Origin: Escherichia coli
GTDB lineage: Bacteria > Pseudomonadota > Gammaproteobacteria > Enterobacterales > Enterobacteriaceae
Assembly: GCF_029227855.1 (NCBI RefSeq)
Contig: NZ_CP074356.1
DNA length: 64,000 nt
Direction: 5' to 3' (one strand)
The notes below the pieces were generated by a model, which made no database searches, was not told the origin of the DNA, and was given only the letters and a program-made list of their open reading frames with translations. The translations under genes were made by a program, and so were the position numbers. The first letter of the stretch is position 1, and every line of letters begins with the position of its first letter. This document shows positions 783 through 21,519 of the stretch, piece by piece.

Positions 783-825
783 GTACCTGAAATCAGCCCC
801 TGAACGGGGCTGTGCGGAGACAGTT

Positions 826-1417: not shown

Positions 1418-1428
1418 AGAGGTGTGGG

Positions 1429-2019: not shown

Positions 2020-2417
2020 ACCGACATACACAAATCCGCCAGGTCGTACTGGCACGCCTTCGGGAACAGTGTGGAGACAGCGCCACGTTTTTTGACGGGC
2101 TTCCGGCATTTATTGATGCGCAGGAACTGCCTGCCGTGGCGGTGTGGCTGAGTGATGCTCAGTACACCGGAAAAATGACGGATGAAGATGACTGGCAGGC
2201 TGTTCTGCATATTGCCGTCTTCATCCGGGCACAGGCACCGGATTCAGAGCTGGATATGTGGATGGAGAGCACCATTTTCCCGGCCCTGAATGATGTACCG
2301 GCACTTTCCGGACTCATCGACACCCTGAACCCACTCGGTTTTAACTATCAACGTGATAATGAGATGGCCACCTGGGCGATGGCGGAAATCACGTACCAGA
2401 TCACGTACACGAATTAA
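2016..2417 (+). CDS. Tail terminator protein (lambda gpU-like)
   Basis: Shares recalled lambda U motifs (ATFFDG, PAVAVWL, PDSELDMWMES, PAL) and ends ITYQITY. Confidence 0.85.
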   Translation: MNRHTQIRQVVLARLREQCGDSATFFDGLPAFIDAQELPAVAVWLSDAQYTGKMTDEDDWQAVLHIAVFIRAQAPDSELDMWMESTIFPALNDVPALSGLIDTLNPLGFNYQRDNEMATWAMAEITYQITYTN

Positions 2418-2427
2418 GGAGGTGGTA

Positions 2428-3171
2428 ATGACCACACCAAATCCACTGGCAAAGACGAAAGGTGCGGGGACGACGTTCTGGATGTATACCGGCAACGGCG
2501 ATGCGTTTGCGAACCCTTTGTCGGACACTGACTGGCTGCGTCTTGCGATGGTGAAGGATCTGCAACCTGGCGAAATGACCGCTGATGCAGAAGATGACAC
2601 TTATCTCGATGATGAAGATGCAGACTGGAAAACGACAACCCAGGGGCAGAAATCCGTTGGTGATACTTCGGCGACGCTGGCCTGGCGTCCGGGTGACAGC
2701 GGGCAGAAAAAACTGGTTCAGTTGTTCGACTCCGGTGAAGTCTGCGCGTTTCGTATCAAATATCCCAACGGCACTGTTGATGTTTTCCGTGGCTGGCTGA
2801 GCTCACTGGGTAAAACCATTGCCTCAAAAGACGTGATGACCCGCACTGTGAAAATCAGCGGTGTGGGGCGTCCGTATCTGGCAGAGGAAGGCACTGAAAC
2901 CGTGAGCGTTACCGGGCTGACAGTATCACCGGCGTCTGCCAGTGTAAAAGTGGGAGCAACCACCACGCTGACCTTTACAGTAAAACCTGACGGAGCCAGT
3001 GACAAAGCGATCAGTGTGCATTCGTCAGATCCACAGACTGCCACGGTTACCCTGAACGGACTTGTGGCCACGGTAAAAGGCGTGAAGCAGGGCAGTGTCA
3101 GCATTGTGGGCATGACCGCTGACGGGAATTTTGTGGCTGTGGCTGCGGTGACTGTCAGCGCCGCAGGTTAA
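2428..3171 (+). CDS. Major tail protein (lambda gpV-like) with C-terminal Ig-like (Big_2) domain
   Basis: ATG at 2428 follows an AAGGAGGTGG Shine-Dalgarno; 247 aa; C-terminus is a Thr/Val-rich beta domain typical of V. Confidence 0.9.
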   Translation: MTTPNPLAKTKGAGTTFWMYTGNGDAFANPLSDTDWLRLAMVKDLQPGEMTADAEDDTYLDDEDADWKTTTQGQKSVGDTSATLAWRPGDSGQKKLVQLFDSGEVCAFRIKYPNGTVDVFRGWLSSLGKTIASKDVMTRTVKISGVGRPYLAEEGTETVSVTGLTVSPASASVKVGATTTLTFTVKPDGASDKAISVHSSDPQTATVTLNGLVATVKGVKQGSVSIVGMTADGNFVAVAAVTVSAAG

Positions 3172-3191
3172 CAGGACGATACTCATCATTT

Positions 3192-3219
3192 GCCCCGGTT
3201 ATCCGGGGCTTTTTTGCAG
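3192..3219 (+). terminator. Intrinsic terminator-like hairpin between V and G
   Basis: GCCCCGG-TTAT-CCGGGGC stem followed by TTTTTT. Confidence 0.55.
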
Positions 3220-3228
3220 GTGGAGAAC

Positions 3229-3618
3229 ATGATGTTTCTGAAACAGGGCACGTTTAATTATGAAAAACAGTCCGTGGTGCTCAGTGAGCTGTCCGGGCTG
3301 CAGAGAATTGAATATCTGGCGTTTGTTCAGCAGCGAACGGCAAAGTTTGATGCCGGTGAGGGAGAACTGCCGGAGGCTGAACGACAGATTGCTTTTCTGC
3401 GGATGGGGATGGATATCAATGCCTGGCTGGTTTCCCGCTCACTGTGGAATGCGGATCAGTCTAAGGATGTAGAGACGCTTTGCGCATCCGTTATTACAAC
3501 ATGGTCGTATGATGCCCTGGGTGCGGGGGCGGAGATGGTTCTGTCGCTGAGCGGTATGGGGGCCATTGATAATGCCGGGGATGATGAGCATGAGGCGCTG
3601 ACGCCGGAAAAGTCCTGA
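3229..3618 (+). CDS. Tail assembly chaperone (lambda gpG-like)
   Basis: 129-aa ORF; GGTGGAG Shine-Dalgarno before ATG 3229; sits before the tape measure gene. Confidence 0.85.
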   Translation: MMFLKQGTFNYEKQSVVLSELSGLQRIEYLAFVQQRTAKFDAGEGELPEAERQIAFLRMGMDINAWLVSRSLWNADQSKDVETLCASVITTWSYDALGAGAEMVLSLSGMGAIDNAGDDEHEALTPEKS

Positions 3619-3956
3619 CGCGGGAAATGCAGTTTGTCATGCGGCTTGCCCGGGAGTTCCGACGGGCAGACTGGCGGCGGATGCTGTCGGAAATGTCGGC
3701 CACTGAGCTTGGTGAGTGGGGCGATTATTTCCGGATGCAGAGCTTCAGTGATGTGTGGATGGATGCGCAGTTTGCCTCGCTGAAGGCATTGATCGTGAGA
3801 ATGGTGTCCGGCAGCAGTGATGCTGCGGTGGCTGATTTCAGCCTTTTACCGGAAGAGAACGGGATACCGGAGCGAACGGACGAAGAACTGATGCATCTTG
3901 GGGAAGGTATTTCCGGAGGTGTGCGTTATGGACCAGATAGCCAACCTGGTCATTGA
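3594..3956 (+). CDS. T-frame extension of the G-T fusion chaperone (reached by -1 frameshift from G)
   Basis: The -1 frame is open from 3594 and overlaps the last 8 codons of G; candidate slip site GGAAAAG at 3606-3612. Confidence 0.65.
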   Translation, partial: GADAGKVLTREMQFVMRLAREFRRADWRRMLSEMSATELGEWGDYFRMQSFSDVWMDAQFASLKALIVRMVSGSSDAAVADFSLLPEENGIPERTDEELMHLGEGISGGVRYGPDSQPGH

Positions 3957-6900
3957 TTTGGGGATTGATGCGGCAGAGTTTAAAAATGAAATCCCCCGTA
4001 TCAAAAACCTTCTGAATGGTGCAGCCAGCGATGCAGAACGGTCTTCTGCCCGTATGCAGCGTTTTATGGAGCGTCAGACTCAGGCCGCCCGGCAGACAAC
4101 GCAGGCGGCGTCTTCGGCTGCAACAGCCGCATCCGTCCATGCGCAGACAGTGGAGAAGAACGCACAGGCTCATGAACGCATGGCCCGCGAGGTGGAGAAA
4201 ACCCGCCAGCGCATGGAGGCGCTGAGCCAGAAAATGCGCGAGGAACAGGCGCAGGCCATGGCTCTGGCGGAGGCTCAGGATAAAGCGGCTGCTGCGTTTT
4301 ATCGTCAGATTGACAGTGTGAAACAGGCCAGTGCGGGGCTGCAGGAATTACAGCGTATTCAGCAGCAGATCCGACAGGCCAGAAACAGTGGCGGGATTGG
4401 TCAGCAGGATTATCTGGCGCTGATTTCTGAGGTTACGGCGAAAACCCGTGTTCTTACACAGGCTGAGGAAGAGGCTACCCGACAGAAAGTGGCGTTTATC
4501 CGTCAGCTTAAAGAGCAGGCAACCCGCCAGAATCTTTCTTCTTCTGAGTTGCTTCGTGCTAAGGCTGCCCAGCTGGGGGTAAGCAGTGCTGCAGAAGTGT
4601 ATATCCGCAAAATGGAGCAGGCAGGAAAAGCCACGCATTCGCTGGGTCTGAAAAGTGCAGCGGCCCGTCAGGAGATAGGCGTTCTGATAGGTGAACTGGC
4701 CCGCGGAAATTTAGGTGCGCTGAGGGGATCCGGAATAACGCTGGCTAACCGTGCCGGGTGGATAGACACATTGATGTCACCGAAAGGCATGATGCTTGGC
4801 GGGGTTATTGGCGGTATTGCCGCGGCTGTCTATGGTCTGGGTAAAGCCTGGTATGACGGTCAGAAGGAGGGGGAAGAATTTAACCGCCAGCTGTCGCTGA
4901 CGGGGCATTATGCCGGAGTCACTGCCGGGCAGCTGTGGACGCTCAGTCGTGCTATTTCCGGGAATGGTATCACGCAACATGCTGCAGCCGGTGCGCTGGC
5001 TCAGGTGGTGGGTAGTGGTGCATTTCGTGGAAACGATATCGGTATGGTGGCGAGAGCTGCCGCACAGATGGAGCGATCGGTTGGCCAGTCGATCAGCGAT
5101 ACCATAAATCAGTTTAAGCGGCTGAAGGATGATCCTGTAAATGCCGCGAAGGCTCTGGACAATGAGCTGCATTTTCTTACTGCCACTCAGCTTGAGCAGA
5201 TACGTGTCCTTGGGGATCAGGGACGGTCCAGTGATGCTGCACGGATAGCCATGTCTGCACTGGCAGAGGAAACCGGTCGGCGTACTGCGGATATTGATAA
5301 TAACCTCAATGCGCTTGGTAGTACGCTGAAGTATCTGTCTGATTTGTGGAGTCGTTTCTGGGATGCGGCCATGAATATTGGTCGTGAAGACTCGCTGGAT
5401 GAACAAATTGCCGCTTTACAGGAGAAAGTGTCGCGGGCGAAAAGACTCCCCTGGACGGCATCATCTTCTCAGGTTGAATACGATCAGCAGCGTCTTAACG
5501 ATCTTCAGGAGAAAAAACGCCAGAAGGATTTGCAGGATGCAAAAGAGCAGGCAGAGCGGAATTATCAGGAGCAACAGAAACGCCGTAATGCTGAAAATGC
5601 TGCACTGAACCGGATGAATGAAACTGAAGCAGCACGGCATCAGCGTGAAATTGCGCGTATTAATGCCATGCAGTACGCCGATCAGGCTGTCAGGGATGCG
5701 GCGATACAACGTGAAAATGAACGTTACGAGAAAGCCCTGGCATCCGGTAAGAAAAAAACACGCGAAACCCGTAATGATGAGGCCACCCGGTTATTGCTGC
5801 AGTACAGTCAGCAACAGGCACAGGTGGAAGGGCAGATTGCTGCTGCAAGACAGTCAGCAGGCATTGCCACTGACAGGATGACAGAAGCGCATAAACAGCT
5901 TCTGGCTCTGCAGCAGCGCATCAGCGACCTGGACGGGAAAAAACTGACGGCAGATGAAAAGAGTGTGCTTGCCCGTAAAGATGAACTGATTCAGGCATTG
6001 ACGCTGCTGGATGTAAAACAGCAGGAGCTTCAGAAACAGACGGCACTCAACGAGCTGAAGAAAAAAACAATTCAGCTGACCAGTCAACTGGCTGAAGAAG
6101 AGCGCGCTCAGCGTCAGCAACATGACCTGGATATCGCCACGGTGGGTATGGGTGATCAGCAGCGGCAGCGATATCAGGTACAACTGAGTCTTCGCCAGAA
6201 ATACCAGCAACAGCTGGAGCAGTTGAGGCGGGATAGTGAGCGGAAAGGGACATATAACACGGATGACTACAGAAAGGCCGAGCAGGCGCTGACGGAGAGC
6301 CTGAACCGACAACTGAGTGAGAATCGCCGTTACTGGCAACAGCTTGAAATTGCTCAGGGTGACTGGAAAAACGGAGTCCTGCGTGCACTCCAGAATGTCA
6401 CTGAGAATGCGGATAACACAGCCGGGACAGTGGAACAGTTGTTCACGTCTGCGTTCAGTAGCATGAGTGACTGGCTGGCGACATTCTGTACTACAGGCAA
6501 ACTCAATTTCAAATCCTTCACCTCTTCTGTGCTGTCAGATATGTCCAGAATCATGGCTCAGATAGCTTTAATGAAAGCGGTAAAAGGCATTGCTTCCGCG
6601 CTGCCTTTTGATTTTGTAGCTAATGCTGATGGCGGTGTTTATCAGTCGGCTGATTTGAGTCGCTACAGTGGCACGGTGGTTAACCGTCCGACGTTTTTTG
6701 CTTTTGCAAAAGGCGCGGGTGTGATGGGGGAAGCTGGGCCTGAAGCCATTCTGCCACTGCGTCGTGGTGCTGACGGTAAGCTGGGGGTTGTGGCGGATAT
6801 TGGTGGTTCAGGTATGGCGATGTTTGCCCCGCAGTACAACATCGAGATCAATAACGATGGCACGAACGGGCAGATAGGTCCGGCTGCCCTGAAGGTGGTT

Positions 6901-6984
6901 TATGACCTTGGGAAAAAAGCGGCAGCGGACTTTATGCAACAGCAGGCCCGTGATGGTGGTCGGTTAAGTGGAGCATATCGGTAA
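3928..6984 (+). CDS. Tail tape measure protein (lambda gpH-like)
   Basis: 1018 aa, coiled-coil rich; N-terminus (MDQIANLVIDLGIDAA) and C-terminus (NNDGTNGQIGPAALKVVYD) match recalled lambda H; GGAGGTG Shine-Dalgarno before 3928. Confidence 0.9.
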   Translation: MDQIANLVIDLGIDAAEFKNEIPRIKNLLNGAASDAERSSARMQRFMERQTQAARQTTQAASSAATAASVHAQTVEKNAQAHERMAREVEKTRQRMEALSQKMREEQAQAMALAEAQDKAAAAFYRQIDSVKQASAGLQELQRIQQQIRQARNSGGIGQQDYLALISEVTAKTRVLTQAEEEATRQKVAFIRQLKEQATRQNLSSSELLRAKAAQLGVSSAAEVYIRKMEQAGKATHSLGLKSAAARQEIGVLIGELARGNLGALRGSGITLANRAGWIDTLMSPKGMMLGGVIGGIAAAVYGLGKAWYDGQKEGEEFNRQLSLTGHYAGVTAGQLWTLSRAISGNGITQHAAAGALAQVVGSGAFRGNDIGMVARAAAQMERSVGQSISDTINQFKRLKDDPVNAAKALDNELHFLTATQLEQIRVLGDQGRSSDAARIAMSALAEETGRRTADIDNNLNALGSTLKYLSDLWSRFWDAAMNIGREDSLDEQIAALQEKVSRAKRLPWTASSSQVEYDQQRLNDLQEKKRQKDLQDAKEQAERNYQEQQKRRNAENAALNRMNETEAARHQREIARINAMQYADQAVRDAAIQRENERYEKALASGKKKTRETRNDEATRLLLQYSQQQAQVEGQIAAARQSAGIATDRMTEAHKQLLALQQRISDLDGKKLTADEKSVLARKDELIQALTLLDVKQQELQKQTALNELKKKTIQLTSQLAEEERAQRQQHDLDIATVGMGDQQRQRYQVQLSLRQKYQQQLEQLRRDSERKGTYNTDDYRKAEQALTESLNRQLSENRRYWQQLEIAQGDWKNGVLRALQNVTENADNTAGTVEQLFTSAFSSMSDWLATFCTTGKLNFKSFTSSVLSDMSRIMAQIALMKAVKGIASALPFDFVANADGGVYQSADLSRYSGTVVNRPTFFAFAKGAGVMGEAGPEAILPLRRGADGKLGVVADIGGSGMAMFAPQYNIEINNDGTNGQIGPAALKVVYDLGKKAAADFMQQQARDGGRLSGAYR

Positions 6985-7313
6985 TGGAGACGTTTCACTG
7001 GAAAGTGCGCCCGGATATGAATGTGGTATCAGAGCCGAAAGTGGTGACAGTGAAGCTGGGCGATGGTTATGAACAGCGTCGTGCGGCGGGACTGAATAAC
7101 CAGTTGTCGACTTACAGCGTGACGATACGTGTTCGTAAATGTGAACACCCATCTTTAAAAGCCTTTCTGGAACGGCACGGTGGCGTCCGCGCATTTCAGT
7201 GGACGCCACCTTATGACTGGAAGCCGATCAGGGTGGTTTGTCGTAAATGGTCGGCAAGCGTGGGGGCGCTGTGGGTAACCATAACGGCAGATTTTGAACA
7301 GGTCGTGGCATAG
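6984..7313 (+). CDS. Minor tail protein (lambda gpM-like)
   Basis: 109 aa, same length as lambda M; start overlaps the H stop. Confidence 0.9.
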   Translation: METFHWKVRPDMNVVSEPKVVTVKLGDGYEQRRAAGLNNQLSTYSVTIRVRKCEHPSLKAFLERHGGVRAFQWTPPYDWKPIRVVCRKWSASVGALWVTITADFEQVVA

Positions 7314-7322
7314 GAGGCCCTG

Positions 7323-8021
7323 ATGCAGGATATTCCACAGGAAACACATCATGAGACGACACGCCTTACTCAGTCAGCCCAGGTGGTGCTCTGGGAAATC
7401 GATCTGACAGAGGTCGGTGGTGAACGTTATTTTTTCTGTAATGAGCAGAACGAAAAAGGTGAGCCGGTCACCTGGCAGGGGCGGCAGTATCAGGTATACC
7501 CTATTCAGGGGACGGGATTTGAACTGAACGGTAAGGGTAGTGCTGCCCGTCCGACACTGACGGTCTCTAACCTGCACGGCATGGTCACCGGGATGGTGGA
7601 AGACCTGCAGAGTCTGGTCGGCGGAACGGTGGTCAGGCGTAAGGTTTACGCCCGTTTTCTGGATGCGGTGAACTTCGTCAACGGAAACAGCGACGCCGAT
7701 CCGGAGCAGGAGGTGATCAGCCGCTGGCGCATCGAGCAGTGCAGCGAACTGAGTGCGGTCAGTGCCTCCTTTGTGCTCTCCACACCGACGGAAACGGATG
7801 GTGCTGTTTTTCCGGGGCGCATCATGCTGGCCAACACCTGCACCTGGACCTATCGCGGTGATGAGTGCGGTTATCATGGTCCGGCTGTCGCGGATGAATA
7901 TGACCAGCCGACGTCCGATATCACGAAGGATAAATGCAGCAAATGCCTGAGCGGCTGTAAGTTTCGCAATAACGTCGGCAACTTTGGCGGCTTCCTTTCC
8001 ATTAACAAACTTTCGCAGTAA
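7323..8021 (+). CDS. Minor tail protein (lambda gpL-like)
   Basis: 232 aa, same length as lambda L; Cys-rich C-terminus. Confidence 0.9.
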   Translation: MQDIPQETHHETTRLTQSAQVVLWEIDLTEVGGERYFFCNEQNEKGEPVTWQGRQYQVYPIQGTGFELNGKGSAARPTLTVSNLHGMVTGMVEDLQSLVGGTVVRRKVYARFLDAVNFVNGNSDADPEQEVISRWRIEQCSELSAVSASFVLSTPTETDGAVFPGRIMLANTCTWTYRGDECGYHGPAVADEYDQPTSDITKDKCSKCLSGCKFRNNVGNFGGFLSINKLSQ

Positions 8022-8025
8022 TCCC

Positions 8026-8769
8026 ATGACACAGACAGAATCAGCGATTCTGGCGCACGCCCGGCGATGTGCGCCAGCGGAGTCGTGCGGCTTCGTGGTG
8101 AGAACGCCGGAGGGGGAAAGATATTTTCCCTGCGTGAATATCTCCGGTGAGCCGGAGGATTATTTCCGGATGTCGCCGGAGGACTGGCTGCAGGCAGAGA
8201 TGCAGGGTGAGATTGTGGCGCTGGTCCACAGTCATCCCGGTGGTCTGCCCTGGCTGAGTGAGGCTGACCGGTGGCTGCAGGTGCAGAGTGATTTGCCGTG
8301 GTGGCTGGTCTGCCGGGGGGCGATTCACAAGTTCCGCTGTGTGCCGCATCTCACCGGGCGGCGCTTTGAGCACGGGGTGACGGACTGTTACACGCTGTTC
8401 CGGGACGCTTACCATCTGGCGGGGATTGAGATGCCGGATTTTACGCGGGAGGATGACTGGTGGCGTCACGGTCAGAATCTCTATCTGGATAATCTGGAGG
8501 CCACAGGGCTGTATCAGGTGCCGTTGTCAGCGGCGCAGCCGGGCGATGTGCTGCTGTGCTGTTTTGGTTCATCGGTGCCGAATCACGCCGCAATTTACTG
8601 CGGCGACGGCGAGCTGCTGCACCATATTCCTGAACAACTGAGCAAACGAGAGAGGTATACCGACAAATGGCAGCGACGCACACACTCCCTCTGGCGTCAC
8701 CGGGCATGGCGCGCATCTGCCTTTACGGGGATTTACAACGATTTGGTCGCCGCATCGACCTTCGTGTGA
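8026..8769 (+). CDS. Tail tip assembly protein (lambda gpK-like; MPN/JAB and NlpC/P60-type domains)
   Basis: HSHPGG motif typical of JAB/MPN; placed between L and I; 247 aa, longer than lambda K, overlapping I by about 100 nt. Confidence 0.8.
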   Translation: MTQTESAILAHARRCAPAESCGFVVRTPEGERYFPCVNISGEPEDYFRMSPEDWLQAEMQGEIVALVHSHPGGLPWLSEADRWLQVQSDLPWWLVCRGAIHKFRCVPHLTGRRFEHGVTDCYTLFRDAYHLAGIEMPDFTREDDWWRHGQNLYLDNLEATGLYQVPLSAAQPGDVLLCCFGSSVPNHAAIYCGDGELLHHIPEQLSKRERYTDKWQRRTHSLWRHRAWRASAFTGIYNDLVAASTFV

Positions 8770-9308
8770 AAACGGGGGCTGAAGCCATCCGGGCGCTGGC
8801 CACACAGCTCCCGGCGTTTCGTCAGAAACTGAGCGACGGCTGGTATCAGGTACGGATTGCCGGGCGTGATACAGGTGAAACGGAATTATCAGCCCGTCTT
8901 AATGAACCGCTGGCAAATGGTGCTGTGATCCATATCGTGCCGCGTCTGGCAGGAGCCAAAAGTGGCGGTGTGTTTCAGGCTGTGCTGGGGGCGGCTGTTA
9001 TGGCGGTTGCTATATGGATGCCGGGGGTAGGAATTATGGCGAGTAATCTGCTGTTTTCTCTCGGTGCCAGTATGACGCTTGGCGGTGTTGCACAGATGCT
9101 GGCCCCTAAACCCAAAACCCCCCGCACACAGACAACGGATAACGGCAAACAGAACACCTATTTTTCTTCACTGGATAATATGGTTGCCCAGGGCAATGTT
9201 CTGCCCGTTCTGTACGGTGAAATGCGCGTGGGATCACGTGTGGTATCTCAGGAGATCAGCACAGCAGATGAAGGTGATGGTGGTCAGGTTGTGGTGATTG
9301 GTCGCTGA
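8667..9308 (+). CDS. Tail assembly protein (lambda gpI-like)
   Basis: 213 aa; N-terminal ubiquitin-like region, hydrophobic Gly/Ala-rich middle, C-terminus ISTADEGDGGQVVVIGR. Confidence 0.85.
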   Translation: MAATHTLPLASPGMARICLYGDLQRFGRRIDLRVKTGAEAIRALATQLPAFRQKLSDGWYQVRIAGRDTGETELSARLNEPLANGAVIHIVPRLAGAKSGGVFQAVLGAAVMAVAIWMPGVGIMASNLLFSLGASMTLGGVAQMLAPKPKTPRTQTTDNGKQNTYFSSLDNMVAQGNVLPVLYGEMRVGSRVVSQEISTADEGDGGQVVVIGR

Positions 9309-9368
9309 TGAAAAACGTTTTATGTGAAACCGCCTCCGGGCGGTTTTATCGTTTATGGAGCATGACGA

Positions 9369-12300
9369 ATGGGTAAAGGCAGCAGTAAGGGGCATACCCC
9401 GCGCGAAGCGAAGGACAACCTGAAGTCCACGCAGCTGCTGAGTGTGATCGATGCCATCAGCGAAGGGCCGGTTGAAGGTCCGGTGGATGGATTAAAAAGC
9501 GTGCTGCTGAACAGTACGCCGGTGCTGGACAGTGAGGGGAATACCAATATATCCGGCGTCACGGTGGTGTTCCGGGCCGGTGAGCAGGAGCAGACTCCGC
9601 CGGAGGGATTTGAATCCTCCGGTTCCGAGACGGTGCTGGGTACGGAAGTGAAATATGACACGCCGATCACCCGCACCATCACGTCGGCAAACATCGACCG
9701 TCTGCGCTTTACCTTCGGTGTGCAGGCACTGGTGGAAACCACCTCAAAGGGGGACAGGAATCCATCGGAAGTCCGCCTGCTGGTTCAGATACAACGTAAC
9801 GGTGGCTGGGTGACGGAAAAAGACATCACCATTAAGGGTAAAACCACCTCGCAGTATCTGGCCTCAGTGGTGGTGGATAACCTGCCGCCGCGCCCGTTTA
9901 ATATCCGGATGCGCAGGATGACGCCGGACAGCACCACAGACCAGCTGCAGAACAAAACGCTCTGGTCGTCATACACCGAAATCATCGATGTGAAACAGTG
10001 CTACCCGAACACGGCACTGGTCGGCGTGCAGGTGGACTCGGAGCAGTTCGGCAGCCAGCAGGTGAGCCGTAATTATCATCTGCGAGGGCGTATTCTGCAG
10101 GTGCCGTCGAACTATAACCCGCAGACGCGGCAATACAGCGGTATCTGGGACGGGACGTTTAAACCGGCATACAGCAACAACATGGCCTGGTGTCTGTGGG
10201 ATATGCTGACCCATCCGCGCTACGGCATGGGGAAGCGTCTCGGTGCGGCGGATGTGGACAAATGGGCGCTGTATGTCATCGGCCAGAATTGCGACCAGTC
10301 GGTGCCGGATGGCTTTGGTGGCACGGAGCCGCGCATCACCTGTAATGCCTGGCTGACCACGCAGCGCAAGGCGTGGGATGTGCTCAGTGATTTCTGCTCG
10401 GCGATGCGCTGTATGCCGGTATGGAACGGGCAGACGCTGACGTTCGTGCAGGACCGGCCATCGGATAAGGTGTGGACCTATAACCGCAGTAATGTGGTGA
10501 TGCCGGATGATGGCGCGCCGTTCCGCTACAGCTTCAGCGCCCTGAAGGACCGTCATAATGCCGTTGAGGTGAACTGGATTGACCCGAATAACGGCTGGGA
10601 GACGGCGACAGAGCTTGTGGAGGACACGCAGGCCATTGCCCGTTACGGTCGTAACGTCACGAAGATGGATGCCTTTGGCTGTACCAGCCGGGGGCAGGCA
10701 CACCGCGCCGGGCTGTGGCTGATTAAAACAGAACTGCTGGAAACGCAGACCGTGGATTTCAGCGTCGGCGCAGAAGGGCTTCGCCATGTACCGGGCGATG
10801 TTATTGAAATCTGTGATGATGACTATGCCGGTATCAGCACCGGTGGTCGTGTGCTGGCGGTGAACAGCCAGACCCGGACGCTGACGCTCGACCGTGAAAT
10901 CACGCTGCCATCCTCCGGTACCACGCTGATAAGCCTGGTTGACGGAAGTGGCAATCCGGTCAGCGTGGAGGTTCAGTCCGTCACCGACGGCGTGAAGGTA
11001 AAAGTGAGCCGTGTTCCTGACGGTGTTGCTGAATACAGCGTATGGGGGCTGAAGCTGCCGACGCTGCGCCAGCGACTGTTCCGCTGCGTGAGTATCCGTG
11101 AGAACGACGACGGCACGTATGCCATCACCGCCGTGCAGCATGTGCCGGAAAAAGAGGCCATCGTGGATAACGGGGCGCACTTTGACGGCGAACAGAGTGG
11201 CACGGTGAATGGTGTCACGCCGCCAGCGGTGCAGCACCTGACCGCAGAAGTCACTGCAGACAGCGGGGAATATCAGGTGCTGGCGCGCTGGGATACGCCG
11301 AAGGTGGTGAAGGGTGTGAGCTTTATGCTTCGCCTGACCGTGGCAGCGGATGACGGCAGTGAGCGGCTGGTCAGCACGGCCCGGACGACGGAAACCACAT
11401 ACCGCTTCAGGCAGCTGGCGCTGGGAAGCTACAGGCTGACAGTCCGGGCGGCAAATGCCTGGGGGCAGCAGGGCGATCCTGCATCGGTATCGTTCCGGAT
11501 TGCCGCACCGGCAGCGCCGTCGCGGATTGAGCTGACGCCGGGCTATTTTCAGATAACCGCCACGCCCCATCTTGCCGTTTATGATCCGACGGTACAGTTT
11601 GAGTTCTGGTTCTCGGAAAAGCGGATTGCGGATATCAGGCAGGTTGAAACTACAGCCCGCTATCTTGGCACGGCGCTGTACTGGATAGCTGCCAGTATCA
11701 ATATCAAACCGGGCCATGATTATTATTTTTACATCCGCAGTGTGAACACCGTTGGCAAATCGGCATTTGTGGAGGCTGTTGGCCAGCCGAGTGATGATGC
11801 ATCCGGCTATCTGGATTTTTTCAAAGGCGAGATAGGGAAAAGCCATCTGGCTCAGGAGCTGTGGACGCAGATTGATAACGGTCAGCTTGCGCCTGACCTG
11901 GCTGAAATCAGGACGTCCATTACGGATGTCAGCAATGAAATCACGCAGACCGTCAATAAGAAACTGGAAGACCAGAGTGCGGCAATCCAGCAGATACAGA
12001 AGGTTCAGGTTGATACAAATAATAACCTGAACAGCATGTGGGCTGTGAAGCTGCAGCAGATGCAGGACGGACGCCTTTATATCGCGGGTATTGGTGCCGG
12101 TATTGAGAATACCCCTGACGGTATGCAGAGTCAGGTGCTGCTGGCGGCGGACAGGATTGCGATGATTAATCCTGCGAATGGCAACACAAAACCGATGTTT
12201 GTTGGTCAGGGCGATCAGATATTCATGAACGAAGTGTTCCTGAAATATCTGACGGCTCCCACCATTACCAGCGGCGGTAATCCTCCGGCATTTTCCCTGA

Positions 12301-12848
12301 CACCGGACGGGCGGCTGACGGCGAAAAATGCCGATATTAGCGGTAACGTGAATGCGAACTCCGGGACGCTCAACAACGTCACGATTAACGAGAACTGCCG
12401 GGTTCTGGGAAAACTGTCCGCGAACCAGATTGAAGGCGATCTCGTTAAAACAGTGGGCAAAGCTTTCCCCCGGGACTCCCGTGCACCGGAACGGTGGCCA
12501 TCAGGGACCATTACCGTCAGGGTTTATGACGATCAGCCGTTTGACCGGCAGATTGTTATTCCGGCGGTGGCATTCAGCGGCGCTAAACATGAGAGAGAGC
12601 ATACTGATATTTACTCCTCATGCCGTCTGATAGTGCGGAAAAACGGTGCTGAAATTTATAACCGTACCGCGCTGGATAATACGCTGATTTACAGTGGCGT
12701 TATTGATATGCCTGCCGGTCACGGTCACATGACGCTGGAGTTTTCGGTGTCAGCATGGCTGGTAAATGACTGGTATCCCACAGCAAGTATCAGCGATCTG
12801 CTGGTTGTGGTGATGAAGAAAGCCACCGCAGGCATCAGTATCAGCTGA
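9369..12848 (+). CDS. Host specificity / central tail fibre protein (lambda gpJ-like)
   Basis: 1159 aa; the first ~800 aa match recalled lambda J closely; the C-terminal ~300 aa differ. Confidence 0.95.
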
Positions 12849-12867
12849 ATTTTATAACCCATATACG

Positions 12868-12892
12868 GGCGCCAGAAATGGCGCCTTTTTTA
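12868..12892 (+). terminator. Intrinsic terminator after J
   Basis: GGCGCC-AGAAAT-GGCGCC hairpin followed by TTTTTTT. Confidence 0.6.
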
Positions 12893-12915
12893 TTGCAGAA
12901 AAGCGAGAGGTAATT

Positions 12916-13515
12916 ATGCGTAAAGTTTGTGCCGCCATTTTTTCCGCAGCCATTTGTCTGGCCGTATCCGGTGCGCCTGCATGGGCATCTGAACATCAGT
13001 CCACGCTGAGCGCGGGGTATCTTCATGCCTCGACGAACGTTCCCGGCAGCGATGATCTGAACGGGATTAACGTGAAATACCGTTATGAGTTTACGGACAC
13101 ACTGGGGATGGTGACGTCATTCAGCTATGCAGGAGACAAGAATCGCCAGCTTACCCGTTACAGCGATACCCGCTGGCATGAAGATTCCGTGCGTAACCGC
13201 TGGTTCAGCGTGATGGTGGGGCCGTCTGTGCGCGTGAATGAATGGTTCAGCGCGTATGCGATGGCGGGTATGGCTTACAGCCGTGTTTCGACTTTCTCCG
13301 GAGATTATATCCGCGTAACTGACAACAAGGGGAAAACGCACGATGTGCTGACCGGAAGTGATGACGGTCGCCACAGCGACACGTCTCTGGCATGGGGGGC
13401 TGGCGTGCAGTTTAACCCGACCGAATCCGTGGCCATTGATATTGCTTATGAAGGTTCCGGCAGTGGCGACTGGCGCACTGACGGTTTCATCGTTGGTGTC
13501 GGTTATAAATTCTGA
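12916..13515 (+). CDS. lom: Lom-like outer membrane beta-barrel protein (Ail/PagC/OmpX family)
   Basis: 199 aa with signal peptide, alternating aromatic beta strands and terminal Phe; sits after J as in lambda. Confidence 0.9.
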
Positions 13516-13541
13516 TTAGCCAGGTAACACAGTGTTATGAC

Positions 13542-13569
13542 AGCCCGCCGGTTCAGGCGGGCTTTTTTG
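13542..13569 (+). terminator. Intrinsic terminator after lom
   Basis: AGCCCGCC-GGTTCAG-GCGGGCT hairpin followed by TTTTTT. Confidence 0.6.
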
Positions 13570-14272
13570 TGCACAGAAAACCCCCAGCTAGGCTGGGGGT
13601 TCCGGAAAGCTTTCAGCTTTGAGCCAGTTATTAAAACCCCTTTTGATTTGTTAAAACACTTTGCGGTCTGGCAACTGCAAGTGTCAAACAAGAAATCAAA
13701 AGGGGGTCCCAATGGGGAACGAAAAGAGCTTAGCGCACACCCGATGGAACTGTAAATATCACATAGTTTTTGCGCCAAAATACCGAAGACAGGTGTTCTA
13801 CAGAGAGAAGCGTAGAGCAATAGGCAGTATTTTGAGAAAGCTGTGTGAGTGGAAAAGCGTACGGATTCTGGAAGCTGAATGCTGTGCAGATCATATCCAT
13901 ATGCTTGTGGAGATCCCGCCCAAAATGAGCGTATCCGGGTTTATGGGATATCTGAAAGGGAAAAGCAGTCTGATGCTTTACGAGCAGTTTGGTGATTTGA
14001 AATTCAAATACAGGAACAGGGAGTTCTGGTGCAGAGGGTACTACGTCGATACAGTGGGTAAGAACACGGCGAAGATACAGGATTACATAAAGCACCAGCT
14101 TGAAGAGGATAAAATGGGAGAGCAGTTATCGATTCCCTATCCGGGCAGCCCGTTTACGGGCCGTAAGTAACGAAGTTGGATGCAAATGTCAGATCGTGTG
14201 CGCCTGTTAGGGCGCGGCTGGTAAGAGAGCCTTATAGGCGCATTTGAAAAACCTCCGGCTATGCCGGAGGAT
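13568..14272 (+). mobile_element. IS200-type insertion sequence (IS200/IS605 family); boundaries approximate
   Basis: About 0.7 kb, a single Y1 transposase gene, left-end hairpin AAAACCCCCAGC-TAG-GCTGGGGGTT and a second stem-loop over the tnpA ribosome binding site. Confidence 0.65.
13712..14170 (+). CDS. tnpA: IS200-type transposase TnpA (HuH Y1 transposase)
   Basis: 152 aa with an HxH-type motif (HIHMLVEI) and the usual IS200 TnpA length. Confidence 0.85.
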   Translation: MGNEKSLAHTRWNCKYHIVFAPKYRRQVFYREKRRAIGSILRKLCEWKSVRILEAECCADHIHMLVEIPPKMSVSGFMGYLKGKSSLMLYEQFGDLKFKYRNREFWCRGYYVDTVGKNTAKIQDYIKHQLEEDKMGEQLSIPYPGSPFTGRK

Positions 14273-14290
14273 ATTTATTGTGGAGTGGAT

Positions 14291-16696
14291 ATGGCAGCAG
14301 TAAAAATCTCAGGTGTGCTGAAAGATGGTGCGGGAAAACCAATACAGAACTGCACTATTCAACTGAAGGCAAAGCGTAACAGCACCACGGTACTGGTGAA
14401 CACGGTGGCTTCTGAAAATCCGGATGAAGCCGGACGTTACAGCATGGATGTTGAGTATGGCCAGTACAGCGTCACCCTGCTGGTTGAAGGTTTTCCGCCT
14501 TCACATGCCGGGACCATTACCGTCTATGAAGGCTCCAGACCAGGTACGCTGAATGATTTTCTCGGTGCCATGACGGAAGATGATGTCATGCCGGAGGCAT
14601 TGCGTCGTTTTGAGGCAATGGTGGAAGAAGTGGCACGCAACGCCGAAGCCGCCTCTCAGAGCGCAGCGGCGGCAAAGAAATCCGAAACTGCAGCGGCATC
14701 ATCAAAGAACGCGGCGAAAACCTCAGAAACGAATGCAGCTAATAGTGCACAGGCGGCAGCGACCTCAAAGACTGCATCGGCAAACTCCGCGACAGCAGCC
14801 AAAAAATCAGAAACCAACGCGAAAAATAGCGAGACAGCCGCAAAGACGAGCGAAACCAACGCAAAGTCCAGCCAGACGGCAGCGAAAACCAGCGAAACGA
14901 ATGCCAAAGCCAGTGAAACTGCGGCAAAAAACAGCCAGGTTGCAGCAGCCCAAAGCGAGAGCGCGGCAGCCGGTTCTGCGACTTCAGCAGCTGGATCAGC
15001 AACTGCTGCGGCTAACAGCCAGAAAGCTGCGAAGACGAGTGAAACTAACGCAAAGTCCAGCCAGACGGCAGCGAAGACCAGCGAAACGAATGCCAAAGCC
15101 AGTGAAACTGCGGCGAAAAGCAGTCAGGATGCAGCGGCCCAAAGCGAGAGTGCCGCAGCCAGTTCTGCAAGCGCGGCGGCTGCTTCTGCCACTGCATCAG
15201 CCAACAGTCAAAAAGCAGCAAAAACCAGTGAAACCAACGCAAAGGCGAGCGAGACTGCGGCGGCGAACTCGGCGCAAGCATCGGCAGCAAGCCAGACAGC
15301 AGCTAAAGCAAGTGAAGACGCAGCCAGAGAGTATGCAAGCCAGGCAGCGGAGCCGTATAAATATGTCTTACAGCCACTGCCTGATGTGTGGATACCGTTT
15401 AACGATTCACTGGATATGATTACGGGCTTTTCGCCATCATATAAAAAAATTGTTATTGGCGACGATGAAATAACAATGCCTGGCGACAAGATTGTAAAGT
15501 TTAAACGCGCATCGAAAGCAACTTACATTAATAAATCTGGTGTGCTGACAGAGGCTGCCATTGACGAGCCACGATTTGAACGTGATGGCCTGCTTATTGA
15601 GGGGCAAAGAACTAACCTGCTAATCAATTCAACAAATCCGACTAAATGGAACAAGTCGTCAAATATGATCTTAAGTGCATCAGGTGTAGATGATTTCGGA
15701 TTCCAGTACGCAAAATTTACATTAAAACCAGAAATGGTAGGGCAAATTTCAGCGATTAACATAGTAACCGTTTCCGGCAGTAAAGGTTTTGATGTAACAG
15801 GCGGAGAAAAGTATGTAACCATATCATGCAGGGTGCAAAGTGGCACTCCAAATTTAAGATGCCGATTACGATTTGAAAACTATGATGGTTCTACCTACAC
15901 ATTCTTAGGTGACGCTTACTTAAATACGACAGATTTATCTATTGATAAGACGGGTGGTGCCGCTAATCGCATTACTGCAAGGGCTGTTAAAGATGAAGCA
16001 AGCAAATGGATCTTTTTTGAGGCGACAATTAAGGCACTTGATACAGAAAATATGATAGGTGGAATGGTTCAGTATGCCCCGGCAAAAGGAGTGGGCACTG
16101 GCGCGGATGATTATATTTATATTGCGACCCCTCAAGTTGAAGGTGGGGCGTGCGCTTCATCGTTTATTATAACAGGCGCATCCCCTGTAACACGCGCCAG
16201 CGATATTGTAACGGTCCCCATTTCTCTAAATTGGTGCAATCCCGCTATTAGTTCATTAGCAGAAGTTAATACCAATTGGGATGAATCGCCAAACAAAGAA
16301 GGTAGCGCACGTATTCTTAATATTTCCACTACGGGAGATACAACTGAAATTGCAGATGAAAGTTATATGTATTTGGGGTATACATCTTTGGGAGCACGCG
16401 CAATCATTACAAATGGTAAAGGCACTAAAATAGAATATAAAAGCGTTATAGAACGACCAGAGAGAAAAAGCATTATCGGCTTTAGATTCACAGAAAGTCG
16501 AGAATTGTGTGTTGTGGTTAACGGTAATATTGGTGCTAAGGTGGTTTCTCCTTATAAAAAACACAAATATACAGGAGGCTTCATTAATATTGGTGGTCAA
16601 TCATCATCCGGCAACCGTCACCTATTTGGACACGTTCGAAATCTGCGTATTTGGCACAAGGCATTGACTGATGCTCAGATGGGGGAGTCAATCTAA
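14291..16696 (+). CDS. stf: Side tail fibre protein: lambda Stf-like N-terminus, Ala/Ser/Thr-rich repeats, divergent C-terminus with LamG/concanavalin-like domain
   Basis: The first ~130 aa match recalled lambda Stf (MAVKISGVLKDG..QNCTIQLKAKRNSTT); the C-terminal region is AT-rich and ends in a LamG-type motif (NLRIWHKALTDAQM). Confidence 0.9.
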   Translation: MAAVKISGVLKDGAGKPIQNCTIQLKAKRNSTTVLVNTVASENPDEAGRYSMDVEYGQYSVTLLVEGFPPSHAGTITVYEGSRPGTLNDFLGAMTEDDVMPEALRRFEAMVEEVARNAEAASQSAAAAKKSETAAASSKNAAKTSETNAANSAQAAATSKTASANSATAAKKSETNAKNSETAAKTSETNAKSSQTAAKTSETNAKASETAAKNSQVAAAQSESAAAGSATSAAGSATAAANSQKAAKTSETNAKSSQTAAKTSETNAKASETAAKSSQDAAAQSESAAASSASAAAASATASANSQKAAKTSETNAKASETAAANSAQASAASQTAAKASEDAAREYASQAAEPYKYVLQPLPDVWIPFNDSLDMITGFSPSYKKIVIGDDEITMPGDKIVKFKRASKATYINKSGVLTEAAIDEPRFERDGLLIEGQRTNLLINSTNPTKWNKSSNMILSASGVDDFGFQYAKFTLKPEMVGQISAINIVTVSGSKGFDVTGGEKYVTISCRVQSGTPNLRCRLRFENYDGSTYTFLGDAYLNTTDLSIDKTGGAANRITARAVKDEASKWIFFEATIKALDTENMIGGMVQYAPAKGVGTGADDYIYIATPQVEGGACASSFIITGASPVTRASDIVTVPISLNWCNPAISSLAEVNTNWDESPNKEGSARILNISTTGDTTEIADESYMYLGYTSLGARAIITNGKGTKIEYKSVIERPERKSIIGFRFTESRELCVVVNGNIGAKVVSPYKKHKYTGGFINIGGQSSSGNRHLFGHVRNLRIWHKALTDAQMGESI
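14837..15214 (+). repeat. In-frame tandem duplication, 2 x 189 bp (63 aa each), inside stf
   Basis: Two near-identical 63-aa units (AAKTSETNAKSSQTAAKTSETNAKASETAAK...ANSQK) within a wider 9-aa periodic region. Confidence 0.8.
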
Positions 16697-16977
16697 TGAA
16701 AGATTTAACACTCAAATTTGCCGACAGGGCCGATTTTTCGGCCTTTATGGGAAGTATTGGCTATTATAATGACGAGTCGATGCAGGATGATATTCTGATT
16801 GATGTGATAGGTAACGTGTACAAAGAAACCGGAGAGCTGACTGAAGATGGCGAACCGGTATGTGTTAAGGAAGATGGATATTTTGTAAACGTGCGCATCA
16901 TTAAGGATACGCAAATATCGTCATTATTCGATGAATACGCGGTTGCTGTTGAGCATCAACTTCGTGGCTGGATGTGA
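16696..16977 (+). CDS. Hypothetical small acidic protein, translationally coupled to stf
   Basis: 93-aa ORF whose ATG overlaps the stf stop (TAATG); AT-rich; no family recognised. Confidence 0.5.
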   Translation: MKDLTLKFADRADFSAFMGSIGYYNDESMQDDILIDVIGNVYKETGELTEDGEPVCVKEDGYFVNVRIIKDTQISSLFDEYAVAVEHQLRGWM

Positions 16978-16986
16978 GGTAGAGAA

Positions 16987-17691
16987 ATGGCTACATCAAC
17001 AGTAATTCCGGGAGACATCACCACGCTGAAGGGAGATGTTAGTAAAGCAAAGGAAGATATTTCCTCTATTAACGGAAAAGTATCAACGCTTCAGACTGAT
17101 ATGGCCAGTGCAAAGCAGGATATCAGCACCAGATACACAAAAACTGAAGTTGATAATAAGCTGAAAAACAAAGTGGAAGTGAACGATCTGGAAAGTGGTC
17201 GTTATGGCGGAGATTTTTACCCGCTGACTGGCCGTGAAGCGTTTTATTTATGGGGATTGGGCACAACTACAGCGGCGGCAAATCTTTATCTTAATCCTGA
17301 CCCTGCAATTTCGTCTGTGCTGCGGTCAACATCGTCTATCCGCTATAAACATTCAGTAGAGACGATAGATTCAGAGCACGCCGATCTCATTTTCAGGATG
17401 CGCCCTGTGTGGTACAGGTCGCAATGCGAAAATGACAGGCGTGACTGGGGATTCTATGGATTGATTGCCGAGGAAGTTGGAGAAATTGCCCCTCAGTTTG
17501 TTCACTGGCGACCAGCCAACGAAGATGATGCACCGGAAACCATTTCCAGCAATGGCCTTGTTGCCGAAGGTGTAATGTACGAACGTCTGGTTGTTCCACT
17601 GATTCACCATATCCAGAAGCTGACTGAAAGAGTTGATGAACTTGAGTCAGAATTAAAGTTGTTATCCGTTTCCCGAAGCGATATCGGATAA
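16987..17691 (+). CDS. Short fibre-like protein: N-terminal coiled coil plus C-terminal intramolecular-chaperone (Peptidase S74-like) domain
   Basis: 234 aa; heptad-like N-terminus; C-terminal region has S-x-x-R-x-K (SSIRYKH), RPVWYR and GLIAEEV motifs resembling endosialidase chaperone domains. Confidence 0.55.
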   Translation: MATSTVIPGDITTLKGDVSKAKEDISSINGKVSTLQTDMASAKQDISTRYTKTEVDNKLKNKVEVNDLESGRYGGDFYPLTGREAFYLWGLGTTTAAANLYLNPDPAISSVLRSTSSIRYKHSVETIDSEHADLIFRMRPVWYRSQCENDRRDWGFYGLIAEEVGEIAPQFVHWRPANEDDAPETISSNGLVAEGVMYERLVVPLIHHIQKLTERVDELESELKLLSVSRSDIG

Positions 17692-17701
17692 AGGAGGCGT
17701 A

Positions 17702-17995
17702 ATGGATATAACACCTTTCCTTCATGCACTTTGTGCTGTGGCTGCGCAGGTACTGGTTGGTCTTTTTACCGGAAACTGGGCTTACGGGGCGATAGCTGGT
17801 TGTACGTTCTTCATTGCGCGTGAACATACCCAGGCAGAATATCGCTGGATTGAAATGTTCGGGCATGGCAAGCGTATGAATATGCCGTGGTGGGGCGGTT
17901 TTGATCCGCGTGCGTGGGATGTGGCAAGCCTGATGGATTTTGCTGTGCCGGTGGTGGCGTGTCTGCTGGTCTGGCTGTTGGTTAATCGTGGGTGA
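17702..17995 (+). CDS. Hypothetical small membrane protein (2-3 predicted TM segments)
   Basis: 97-aa ORF with hydrophobic stretches; GGAGG Shine-Dalgarno upstream. Confidence 0.45.
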   Translation: MDITPFLHALCAVAAQVLVGLFTGNWAYGAIAGCTFFIAREHTQAEYRWIEMFGHGKRMNMPWWGGFDPRAWDVASLMDFAVPVVACLLVWLLVNRG

Positions 17996-18005
17996 AAAAA
18001 GGTGA

Positions 18006-18125
18006 GCTGTATATGCAACGGAGGAAGAAACCTCGTTGCGGGAAGCCTTGAAGAAGTATCGGGTGTTGCTGAACCGTGTTGATACGTCAACTGCACAGGA
18101 TATTGAATGGCCAGCACTGCCGTAG
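18006..18125 (+). pseudogene. tfa: Tail fibre assembly (Tfa) gene remnant: only the conserved C-terminal ~39 codons
   Basis: Translation [29 protein letters not shown] matches the conserved Tfa C-terminus; the frame closes at a stop just upstream at 18003-18005. Confidence 0.55.
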
Positions 18126-18222
18126 GGTAAAACATATAAATTCTATAATTAGATGTATCTTTCCATTTACGGCAAGGAAGGGGGCTTGGAAGACGTAAGG
18201 CATCTCACACCGAGATTATTTT

Positions 18223-18813
18223 TTATATGTCAGGTGTCTGAAGTTTTGCTTTGGCTCTTAAAATGGTTTGCCGCGAGGTTTTGAATTCCCGGGCAATGGC
18301 ACTTATACTTACACCTGACTTAATCCGTTCGAATACCACCTGTTTCTGTTCTTCATTTAACACAGGTGGTCGACCAAAACGTTTCCCTGCGCCCCGGGCT
18401 CTTACTATCCCGGAATGAGTGCGTTCAAGTAAAAGGTCTCGTTCAAATTCAGCGACTGCTGAAATTACTTGCATCATCATTTTTCCTGTTGGACTGGTCA
18501 GGTCAATGCCCCCCAATGCTAAGCAATGCACTCTGATACCTGTTTCGGTCAGTTGTTCCACTGTTTTCCTGATATCCATTGCATTACAACCAAGGCGATC
18601 CAGTTTTGTCACAATCAATTGATCACCACATTTCAGGCGAGCAAGCAACCGGTTAAAACCAGGACGCTCACTGGTTGCTGCTGAGCCGCTAATGTGTTCT
18701 TCGATTATTTGCTGAGGTTTGATTTTAAAACCTGCACTTTCGATTTCCCGGCGTTGATTTTCGGTGGTCTGATCCAGCGTTGATATCCGACAGTAAGCAA
18801 AAATTCGAGACAT
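18223..18813 (-). CDS. pinQ: Serine recombinase / DNA invertase (PinQ/PinR-like)
   Basis: 196 aa; N-terminal catalytic region (YCRISTLDQ) and C-terminal helix-turn-helix; convergent with the tfa remnant, next to ydfK. Confidence 0.85.
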
Positions 18814-19129
18814 AGTGAGACTCTATACGAAATTGGTGTTCATATCATAATGCATCTCAGAAAATAATTTTGATTATTTTTTTGCATGTTTGTATGTACA
18901 CGTTCGAAAATAAACGAATGCGTATGCAACCCCGTAATTTTGGTGAGACCCAAAATCGATTTTGTGAAAAATGGCTTTAACTCGGTTTGTTTTTCGAGTT
19001 CCGGGCGGACTCAAGGAAGAAGAATAGTGTTGCGTGTTATTTTAACCAGATTTCAAGTTGTTTGGTCGTGGAAAAGTGGAGCAAAATGTTGTTAAAGTGG
19101 AAAAATGATAAAAAAGTAAGTTTATTATA

Positions 19130-19363
19130 TTACATTTTACCATTTAAATTTTGGTTGTCTTTAAGAACTGATATCGCTGTTTGTAATAATTCTTTGTTAT
19201 CCAGCCATGATTTGTTCTTTATGTTTCCTTCAATGTAATCAAGCAATGTTCTGGTATTGATAGGTCTTCCCTGTTTTGCTACTTCCACTACAGCATCCCC
19301 TAGGATAATTCTGACTTCAGGAAGCTGCGCAGGGAACCACTTTAGGGTGTCTTTTGATTTCAT
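19130..19363 (-). CDS. ydfK: Small prophage protein YdfK/YnaE-like
   Basis: 77 aa from the internal Met (MKSKDTLKWF...), matching the recalled YdfK length and its position next to pin. Confidence 0.55.
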   Translation of the reverse strand: MKSKDTLKWFPAQLPEVRIILGDAVVEVAKQGRPINTRTLLDYIEGNIKNKSWLDNKELLQTAISVLKDNQNLNGKM

Positions 19364-20147
19364 GAATATATTCCTTAAAATATTATTGATTTTCATTGCG
19401 ATATTGTATGTCTGATTCAGGATATGTTGACTTATACATCGGTTTTGTCTGGGTTATTGGATATGCCAATCCCTAATTTTATTAGAGCATGACTAAAAAT
19501 GCTGAATATGATAAGGAGCGAAGTGATTATCAGTATGCTGTTCATATAGCCTCGAATTAGTAATGTGTTATATATGATATAGTTGACAATTTTTATCCTG
19601 GGTGTTCTTAAAGTTCGTAGATAAACATTGTCGTTTCAGGTATACAGGAATGCTAACAGATGGCGGCAAAAATCAGGCGGTTTATGGCGCAAGCTGAAGT
19701 GGCAACTGCAAACTATCTTATGCAGAGACTCTACACGGATTGGGTTTAAAAGTATACATAGATAACAGTTTTTATCTGAAGAAGAAAAATATCAAGGTGA
19801 TATAGCCTATATGCCTTTGATGCGGAGGAATGAATGTGATGGGAGTGATGTATCTGAATAGTTGAAAAACCGCAGACACGCCTTATGCAAGAACGTGCTG
19901 CGGTTGGCTGGTAAATTTTTCGATAGTGCGAGTATTGAATGATTTCCAGCCGTTATTGATTTTACGCGTAACTCCATGAAAAAACTACTTATCTGTTGAG
20001 GAGTTTTTTGGGGCATATATGGGACAGAAATAGGCCCCAGATAGACACTGAGATCGAACTTAGGATGCTTTTTAAAAAATGCAACTATCTGAAAAAACCT
20101 AGAAAACGCCAAGGAAACCACAGGATGGGAAAAAACACCTGTGAATT

Positions 20148-21431: not shown

Positions 21432-21519
21432 ATCCTCAATCCCTTCTCTTACCGGAGAGGGGATTTTTATTCATATAACAAAACATGTAGCTTGCCATAT
21501 TTATGTTTAAGGAATTGTT

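Follow-up and report, generated by a model that had tools for sequence, protein, structure and literature searches.

Mosaic tail-tip protein J of an Escherichia coli lambdoid prophage with a probable OmpC-type rather than LamB-type receptor-binding tip

Does a prophage J protein that follows lambda J for its first 800 or so residues and then departs from it still recognise LamB, the receptor of lambda? The question was raised by a 64,000-nucleotide stretch of an Escherichia coli genome (RefSeq assembly GCF_029227855.1, contig NZ_CP074356.1; hereafter the window), for which a sequence-only reading had noted a lambda-like J that diverges from about residue 810 and had proposed that the prophage probably targets a different receptor. 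Window J was compared with lambda J (NP_040600, from NC_001416; 1132 aa), and its last 400 residues were aligned with the J proteins of phages 434, 21, VT1-Sakai, Stx2 phage 1717 and PhiR55_1 and with the PDB-derived sequence of A8. The coordinates of the features discussed are collected in Table 1.

Table 1. Features of the J locus, with positions in the window
Feature	Position	Strand	Description and basis
Gene J, intact ORF	9369..12848	+	1159 aa; tail tip attachment / central tail fibre protein (translation, Pfam)
Lambda-like part of J	9369..11798	+	Residues 1-810; hub domains, FNIII-1 and FNIII-2 (lambda J alignment)
Divergent block 1, long-shaft allele	11799..12173	+	Alpha-helical shaft plus top of the central straight fibre, residues 811-935 (alignment; domain names from PMC11101478)
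Span holding 28 extra residues	11874..11966	+	Residues 836-856 and 860-866 (857-859 align with lambda); putatively helical shaft (alignment gaps)
Conserved hinge	12174..12398	+	Residues 936-1010; lower beta-prism fibre (alignment)
Divergent block 2, receptor-binding domain	12399..12845	+	Residues 1011-1159; assigned to the VT1-Sakai / '1A2' allele (Pfam, alignment, AF2)
Codon R1076	12594..12596	+	Lambda position 1048 in the alignment; VT1-Sakai and 1A2 have K here
Codon D1134	12768..12770	+	Opposite D1107 of lambda in the alignment; VT1-Sakai and 1A2 have N here
lom	12916..13515	+	Ail/Lom outer-membrane protein (Pfam Ail_Lom, E 6.6e-120)

The gene carries the full gpJ domain set in order, each domain matching its Pfam model above the cut-off: FNIII-A_GpJ (residues 86-207), Phage-tail_3 (330-498), Ig_J (610-714), Ig_J_second (716-818), Phage_Tail_Tip (872-1000) and, closing the protein, the receptor-binding Ig domain Ig_GpJ_C (1029-1159; 'C-terminal receptor binding domain'), at 128 bits against a cut-off of 26.2. 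The gene is preceded in the tail operon by L, K and I and followed by lom and the gene for the side tail fibre (stf), as read from the ORF order of the window, the annotation of near-identical loci and the gene order of lambda, where I likewise lies upstream and lom and stf downstream. As in lambda, lom directly follows J on its 3' side and is also annotated in related genomes, and stf lies 3' of lom. The six gpJ-specific domains, together with the downstream lom and stf, identify the gene as J of a lambdoid prophage, the trimeric tail-tip/central-fibre protein, with a body of lambda type. By homology to lambda, the product would be a homotrimer that seals the tail tube until receptor binding opens it.

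The prophage occupies the ydfJ site, which is the place of the cryptic prophage Qin in K-12. The side tail fibre gene is annotated as a pseudogene in two close relatives, and an IS200-family element lies directly upstream of stf. An invertible tail-fibre segment was sought beside pinQ, and no convincing inverted repeats were found there. Positions 340-13571 of the window differ from the MRSN346647 chromosome by one base.

The ydfJ site, the stf annotation and the insertion element lend something to the view that the prophage is defective and its J gene a relic whose tip specificity no longer serves a function, but we regard this as improbable: the ORF is intact with all of its domains, the tail operon from the tape measure gene to lom is intact in the annotation of relatives, the exact 1159-residue protein recurs in NCBI on 58 contigs (API47368.1 and others), and lambda devoid of side fibres is fully infective (PMC12617516). 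The prophage is probably able to make particles.

Residues 1-810 of window J aligned with lambda J free of gaps and with 791/810 residues identical (97.7%; 96.2% for nucleotides 1-2430 of the gene), and the break began at residue 811, that is, at nucleotide 11799, against 11800 in the sequence-only reading; both the near-identity and the point of departure that it gave were thus borne out. Past residue 811, identity to lambda in successive 30-residue windows was 15/30, 4/30 and 10/30. It returned to 22/30, 29/30 and 20/30 in the windows over 931-1020 (29/30 being the window 961-990) and dropped beyond 1020 to about 40% up to the C-terminus. High identity to the C-terminal part of lambda J was not seen, the final 349 residues having 176/349 positions in common with it (about 50%). 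At the nucleotide level, blastn against lambda returned 93% identity over 7894-11865, then a gap, then 75% over 12035-12385; beyond 12385 within J it detected no lambda homology. The divergence is not uniform: two divergent blocks, residues 811-935 and 1011-1159, stand on either side of a conserved hinge at 936-1010.

These boundaries can be set against the structure of the lambda protein. The rigid, resolved part of J in lambda virions comprises residues 1-807 (PMC12617516), and FNIII-2 is followed by an alpha-helical shaft (809-861), a beta-sheet prism forming the central straight fibre, and an Ig-like receptor-binding domain (PMC11101478). Four bottom loops of this Ig-like domain insert into LamB, and it is the sole part of the protein to contact LamB (PMC11101478). 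On the lambda domain map, the first break of window J falls at the boundary between FNIII-2 and the shaft, and the domain order (hub, FNIII-1, FNIII-2, shaft, beta-prism fibre, Ig-like domain) is the same in the two proteins. The earlier statement that the divergent region is the one that binds LamB in lambda holds for the last 150 or so residues, the receptor-binding domain, and fails for the 349 residues as a whole, the remainder being shaft, fibre and hinge.

In block 1, identity was 38% with lambda and 39% with 434; the corresponding values were 98% for Stx2 phage 1717, 97% for phage 21, 96% for VT1-Sakai and 98% for PhiR55_1 (A8 is lambda-derived in this block, and the comparison does not apply to it). 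Lambda and 434 J have gaps of 21 and 7 residues opposite 836-856 and 860-866, and window J is in this block 28 residues longer than lambda. The inserted residues are presumed to be helical solely by homology to the lambda shaft; an AF2 monomer model of residues 791-1000, covering shaft and fibre, reached a pLDDT of 35 and was discarded. The long-shaft module might alter the way in which receptor binding is relayed to the opening of the tube.

The hinge was 87% identical to lambda, 84% to 434, 89% to A8, 81% to Stx2 phage 1717, 96% to phage 21, and 100% to both VT1-Sakai and PhiR55_1. Lambda residue 964, which lies inside it, is the fusion point of functional gpJ chimeras and was chosen as the 'last stretch of amino acid identity' (Eligo Bioscience; PMC11338833). 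The hinge is a probable recombination joint.

The pattern of divergence in J is far beyond chance. Both divergent blocks have counterparts with 96-100% identity in the J proteins of other lambdoid phages, and this agreement points, at the level of sequence, to modular recombination rather than drift as the way in which distal J was built. Phage 21 (mEp460; OL657228) has a long shaft (97%) and a hinge (96%) in common with window J and carries a different block 2 (64%), which shows that the modules on the two sides of the hinge, shaft and tip, are exchanged independently of each other. Window J would on this account be a lambda-type body to which two widely circulating modules, a long shaft at 811-935 and a VT1-Sakai/'1A2' tip at 1011-1159, have been joined via the conserved hinge.

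The choice of receptor would be made in block 2. Its identity was 42% to lambda (63/150), 41% to 434 (64/158), 58% to A8 (90/154), 60% to Stx2 phage 1717, 64% to phage 21, 98% to VT1-Sakai (146/149) and 99% to PhiR55_1 (148/149). High identity to lambda residues of about 985-1132, receptor loops included, as would be expected of a LamB-type tip, was absent; the tip also differed from the 434 allele and, in the lengths of its loops, from the A8 allele, and it agreed with that of 1A2 and VT1-Sakai. The solved relatives of the distal part were gpJ proteins: a PDB sequence search with residues 801-1159 returned 'A8 gpJ 713' (9wca, 9wcb) at E 2e-126 and lambda gpJ (8xcj, 8xck, 8iyk) at E about 1e-105, and a PDB search with K-12 OmpC showed that 9wcb also holds three OmpC chains.

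A monomer model of residues 991-1159, predicted with AF2 from a 21-sequence alignment, was all-beta with a mean pLDDT of 80.5. Foldseek against the PDB matched it to 9wca, 9wcb, 8xck and 8xcj at E values of 1e-17 to 1e-18 and query-normalised TM scores of 0.72-0.75, and to no other structure near those four. The matched entries are the A8 fibre, closed (9wca) and open with OmpC G17 of EDL933 (9wcb), and the lambda fibre, closed (8xck) and open with LamB (8xcj). The predicted fold of the tip is thus that of the solved gpJ receptor-binding domains, of both the OmpC-bound and the LamB-bound kind.

Assignment to the 1A2 allele required a reconstruction of the 1A2 sequence, which is given in the Supplementary Information of PMC11338833 as recoded DNA and was available as a machine-read PDF with single-base losses and frameshifts. 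Protein motifs and words of window DNA searched in this supplement gave no match, the sequences being recoded and damaged by machine reading. Plain tblastn split the alignment across frames, and protein was aligned to DNA with a custom frameshift-tolerant dynamic programme. Over the last 168 residues, 1A2 agreed with VT1-Sakai J at 155/160 readable codons and with window J at 152/160. The five mismatches between 1A2 and VT1-Sakai adjoin text-recognition errors, and one of them is an impossible in-frame stop. The true differences between the window and 1A2 are R1076K, D1134N and S1157T, the same three as between the window and VT1-Sakai. By this alignment, the window tip is the 1A2/VT1-Sakai allele with three conservative substitutions.

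The same tip allele, Ig-like fold and position at the end of J are found in 1A2 (Brödel et al., Nature 2024, PMC11338833) and in VT1-Sakai (Stx1 prophage of E. coli O157:H7, AP000400). The shaft of 1A2 is the short one of lambda, and that of window J is the long module; a mutation splits J in VT1-Sakai, whereas window J is intact.

The receptor of this allele has been established in engineered lambda particles. Chimeras of gpJ were made from 'naturally occurring gpJ variants', among which A8 accepts the OmpC of both MG1655 and EDL933 (PMC11338833), whereas 1A2, of the two OmpC proteins, is efficient only via that of EDL933 (PMC11338833). Placed on lambda J, the 1A2 tip uses EDL933 OmpC and many other OmpC variants, and neither K-12 OmpC nor LamB (PMC11338833); of a panel of 23 OmpC variants, 21 were served by A8 and/or 1A2 (PMC11338833). 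In the source data of that study, 1A2 gave 98.7% GFP-positive cells in K-12 with EDL933 OmpC (MOI 233) and 5.2% in wild-type MG1655, which has LamB and K-12 OmpC (MOI 50), and wild-type lambda gave 97.7% in MG1655 (MOI 174) (PMC11338833).

The sequence-only reading's expectation of a different receptor is upheld by these data together with the tip identities, the allele matched at 98% using EDL933 OmpC and not LamB (PMC11338833) and lambda standing at 42%. It is highly probable that window J is a mosaic with a 1A2-type tip that docks on OmpC rather than LamB. The bottom loops of the receptor-binding domain would most likely dock on the trimeric porin OmpC, and, if the lambda model applies by homology (PMC11101478), docking on the porin trimer would widen the bottom of the domain, twist the fibre and flip the shaft, and the tube would open. 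The gene for the proposed receptor, ompC, is absent from the window.

That the tip instead uses LamB despite its divergence, or a receptor that is neither LamB nor OmpC (OmpF or FhuA, for example), is very improbable. Its fold equals that of the LamB-binding domain of lambda, and fold alone cannot tell which receptor is chosen; but sequence identity to that domain is low, and the near-identical 1A2 delivers poorly into LamB-positive MG1655 when compared with lambda and needs OmpC of EDL933 type.

Other OmpC-using J proteins are less close. A8 also has a natural OmpC-binding tip of the same fold and is the best match in both sequence and structure among PDB entries, but its loop lengths are other than those of the window and it takes K-12 OmpC, which 1A2 does not. 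The J of 434 (OL657227), a classical OmpC-using lambdoid phage (OmpC per PMC11101478), belongs to the same family and has the same architecture, but with a short, lambda-type shaft and a tip of a separate allele family; since that tip is only 41% identical, OmpC use by window J cannot be argued from the relationship to 434. Gifsy-1 J, which uses OmpC in Salmonella (PMC12312913), was considered as a comparator and dropped because no allele of it was comparable to the window tip.

Whether the three substitutions matter is a separate question. PhiR55_1, a plaque-forming phage propagated on E. coli C, has a J with 97.7% nucleotide identity over the gene and carries R, D and S at the three variable sites, as does the window. 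PhiR55_1 shows that the R/D/S variant is functional, and it does not indicate the receptor. In the literature, nothing was found on the outer-membrane receptor of PhiR55_1, PhiR5_1 or 2G7b, the sole mention (bioRxiv 10.1101/2025.11.03.685801) concerning ManYZ and tape-measure clades. By analogy, the window variant would be expected to act like 1A2 in spite of its three differences.

Two of these differences nevertheless fall at sites of known interest. In the natural 'specificity region' of lambda J (960-1132), four hot spots of indels and variation have been described, at 1012, 1048-49, 1077-78 and 1107 (Maddamsetti et al. 2018, PMC6646904), and lambda 1107 is required for the shift to OmpF (PMC6646904). 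The alignments of R1076 and D1134 in Table 1 place both at such hot spots, which are also known as host-range sites, and make them likely receptor-contact positions, so that the spectrum of OmpC variants, or even the receptor, could differ from that of 1A2. A tip that binds OmpC with another variant spectrum, for example with K-12-type OmpC included or EDL933-type excluded, owing to R1076 and D1134 in receptor-contacting loops, is accordingly a possible but not the favoured reading. It gains from the hot-spot positions, from the difference between 1A2 and A8 themselves in the OmpC variants that they accept (PMC11338833) and from the record of PhiR55_1 on E. coli C; it loses by the small number and conservative nature of the changes (3/149; R/K, D/N, S/T). 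For the 1A2-type tip of window J, we consider the receptor very probably still to be OmpC, and the set of accepted OmpC variants may differ from that of 1A2. A broader proposal, that R1076 and D1134 shift the OmpC-variant set and/or that the long shaft alters the signal to tube opening, is speculative and rather unlikely; if true, such J proteins would form a natural series of alleles in which to study how porin recognition is finely tuned.

The tip is widespread. Among 5,426 complete E. coli genomes, 3,958 had a match to a 509-nucleotide segment encoding it; in 3,363 the match covered 80% or more of the segment, and the best match was at least 99% identical in 673 records. Among sequenced phages, 53 records had the tip domain at 95% identity or more, mostly long-tailed Stx1/Stx2 phages and O157 prophages, and clustering at 90% places the whole protein in a group of 34,633, whose members go under the names 'phage attachment tail tip protein J' or 'host specificity protein J'.

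The divergence of the J tip is real and was correctly interpreted in the sequence-only reading, but it is an instance of a known phenomenon, and among the commonest forms of it. Variation in the J specificity region, with its indel hot spots and recombination, has been described from about 1,200 homologs (PMC6646904), and the tip allele has already been exploited as an OmpC-targeting module in engineered lambda particles (PMC11338833; bioRxiv 10.1101/2025.02.28.640725). The analysis also makes clear that, in E. coli prophages, J does not usually carry the LamB tip allele of lambda. The practical gain is a better label, an OmpC-type rather than a LamB-type J tip, with little importance beyond annotation; that label predicts a host range set by the OmpC variant of the cell and indifferent to the maltose regulation of LamB.

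DNA homology to phage lambda was assessed over lambda positions 14000-24000, spanning the end of L followed by K, I, J, lom and stf. Homology begins at window position 7894 and stops within the tail-tip gene J (7894-11865). The near-identical locus of strain MRSN346647 has head genes whose annotation, a ClpP-like protease/major capsid fusion, differs from the lambda head type, and the tape measure ORF of the window prophage comprises 1028 aa versus 853 in lambda. Within the bounds of the lambda segment compared, the prophage is a mosaic and the tail tip is its only lambda-like part. The 625-aa antisense ORF (see table), across whose span the GC content of J is 0.56-0.63, most likely arises from GC-rich codon usage in J and does not represent a gene.

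Features of the prophage tail region and right end (window coordinates)
Feature	Position	Strand	Details
Antisense ORF	9969-11846	-	625 aa; wholly inside J
IS200-family element	13572-14273		tnpA ORF 13661-14170; Pfam Y1_Tnp
stf start codon	14291		ATG
Tail fibre domain protein	16987-17691		Peptidase_S74 chaperone motif
Prophage right end	~18200-21431		pinQ, ydfK, ynfT

The chromosomal flank (window 17500-30000) matches the clinical strain JNEC-KY178 (Japan) at 100% identity, whereas the prophage tail region reaches only 97.3% identity to that strain and is essentially identical to the clinical strain MRSN346647 (USA). Among complete genomes, the prophage and its flank thus have different closest relatives.

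The IS200-family element is inserted exactly after the terminator hairpin of the outer-membrane protein gene lom (GCCCGCC...GGCGGGC, then a T run) and before the Shine-Dalgarno sequence and ATG of the side tail fibre gene stf. MRSN346647 and JNEC-KY178 carry the same lom-stf site without the element, and the order lom-IS200C-stf is also found in the annotation of CFT073 and many other strains. The element could exert a polar effect on stf expression. The interior of stf (window 14825-15262) contains direct repeats, with 249-nt stretches 83% identical at an offset of 189 nt. The repeats coincide with a marked excess of A over T, the AT skew rising to 0.57 within 14600-15400, and probably encode the repetitive, Ala-rich shaft of Stf. 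In two related genomes, stf is annotated as a pseudogene.

Across window 15500-18900, fragments of tail-fibre genes adjoin the pinQ invertase gene, and the tail-fibre gene tfa is truncated in relatives. A search for inverted repeats bounding an invertible segment beside pinQ yielded no convincing pair, the best being 22 nt at 73% identity. The right end of the prophage is bordered by ydfJ lacking its N-terminus, a junction that is the position of the cryptic prophage Qin in K-12. The window prophage thus seems to occupy the Qin site in a far more complete form.
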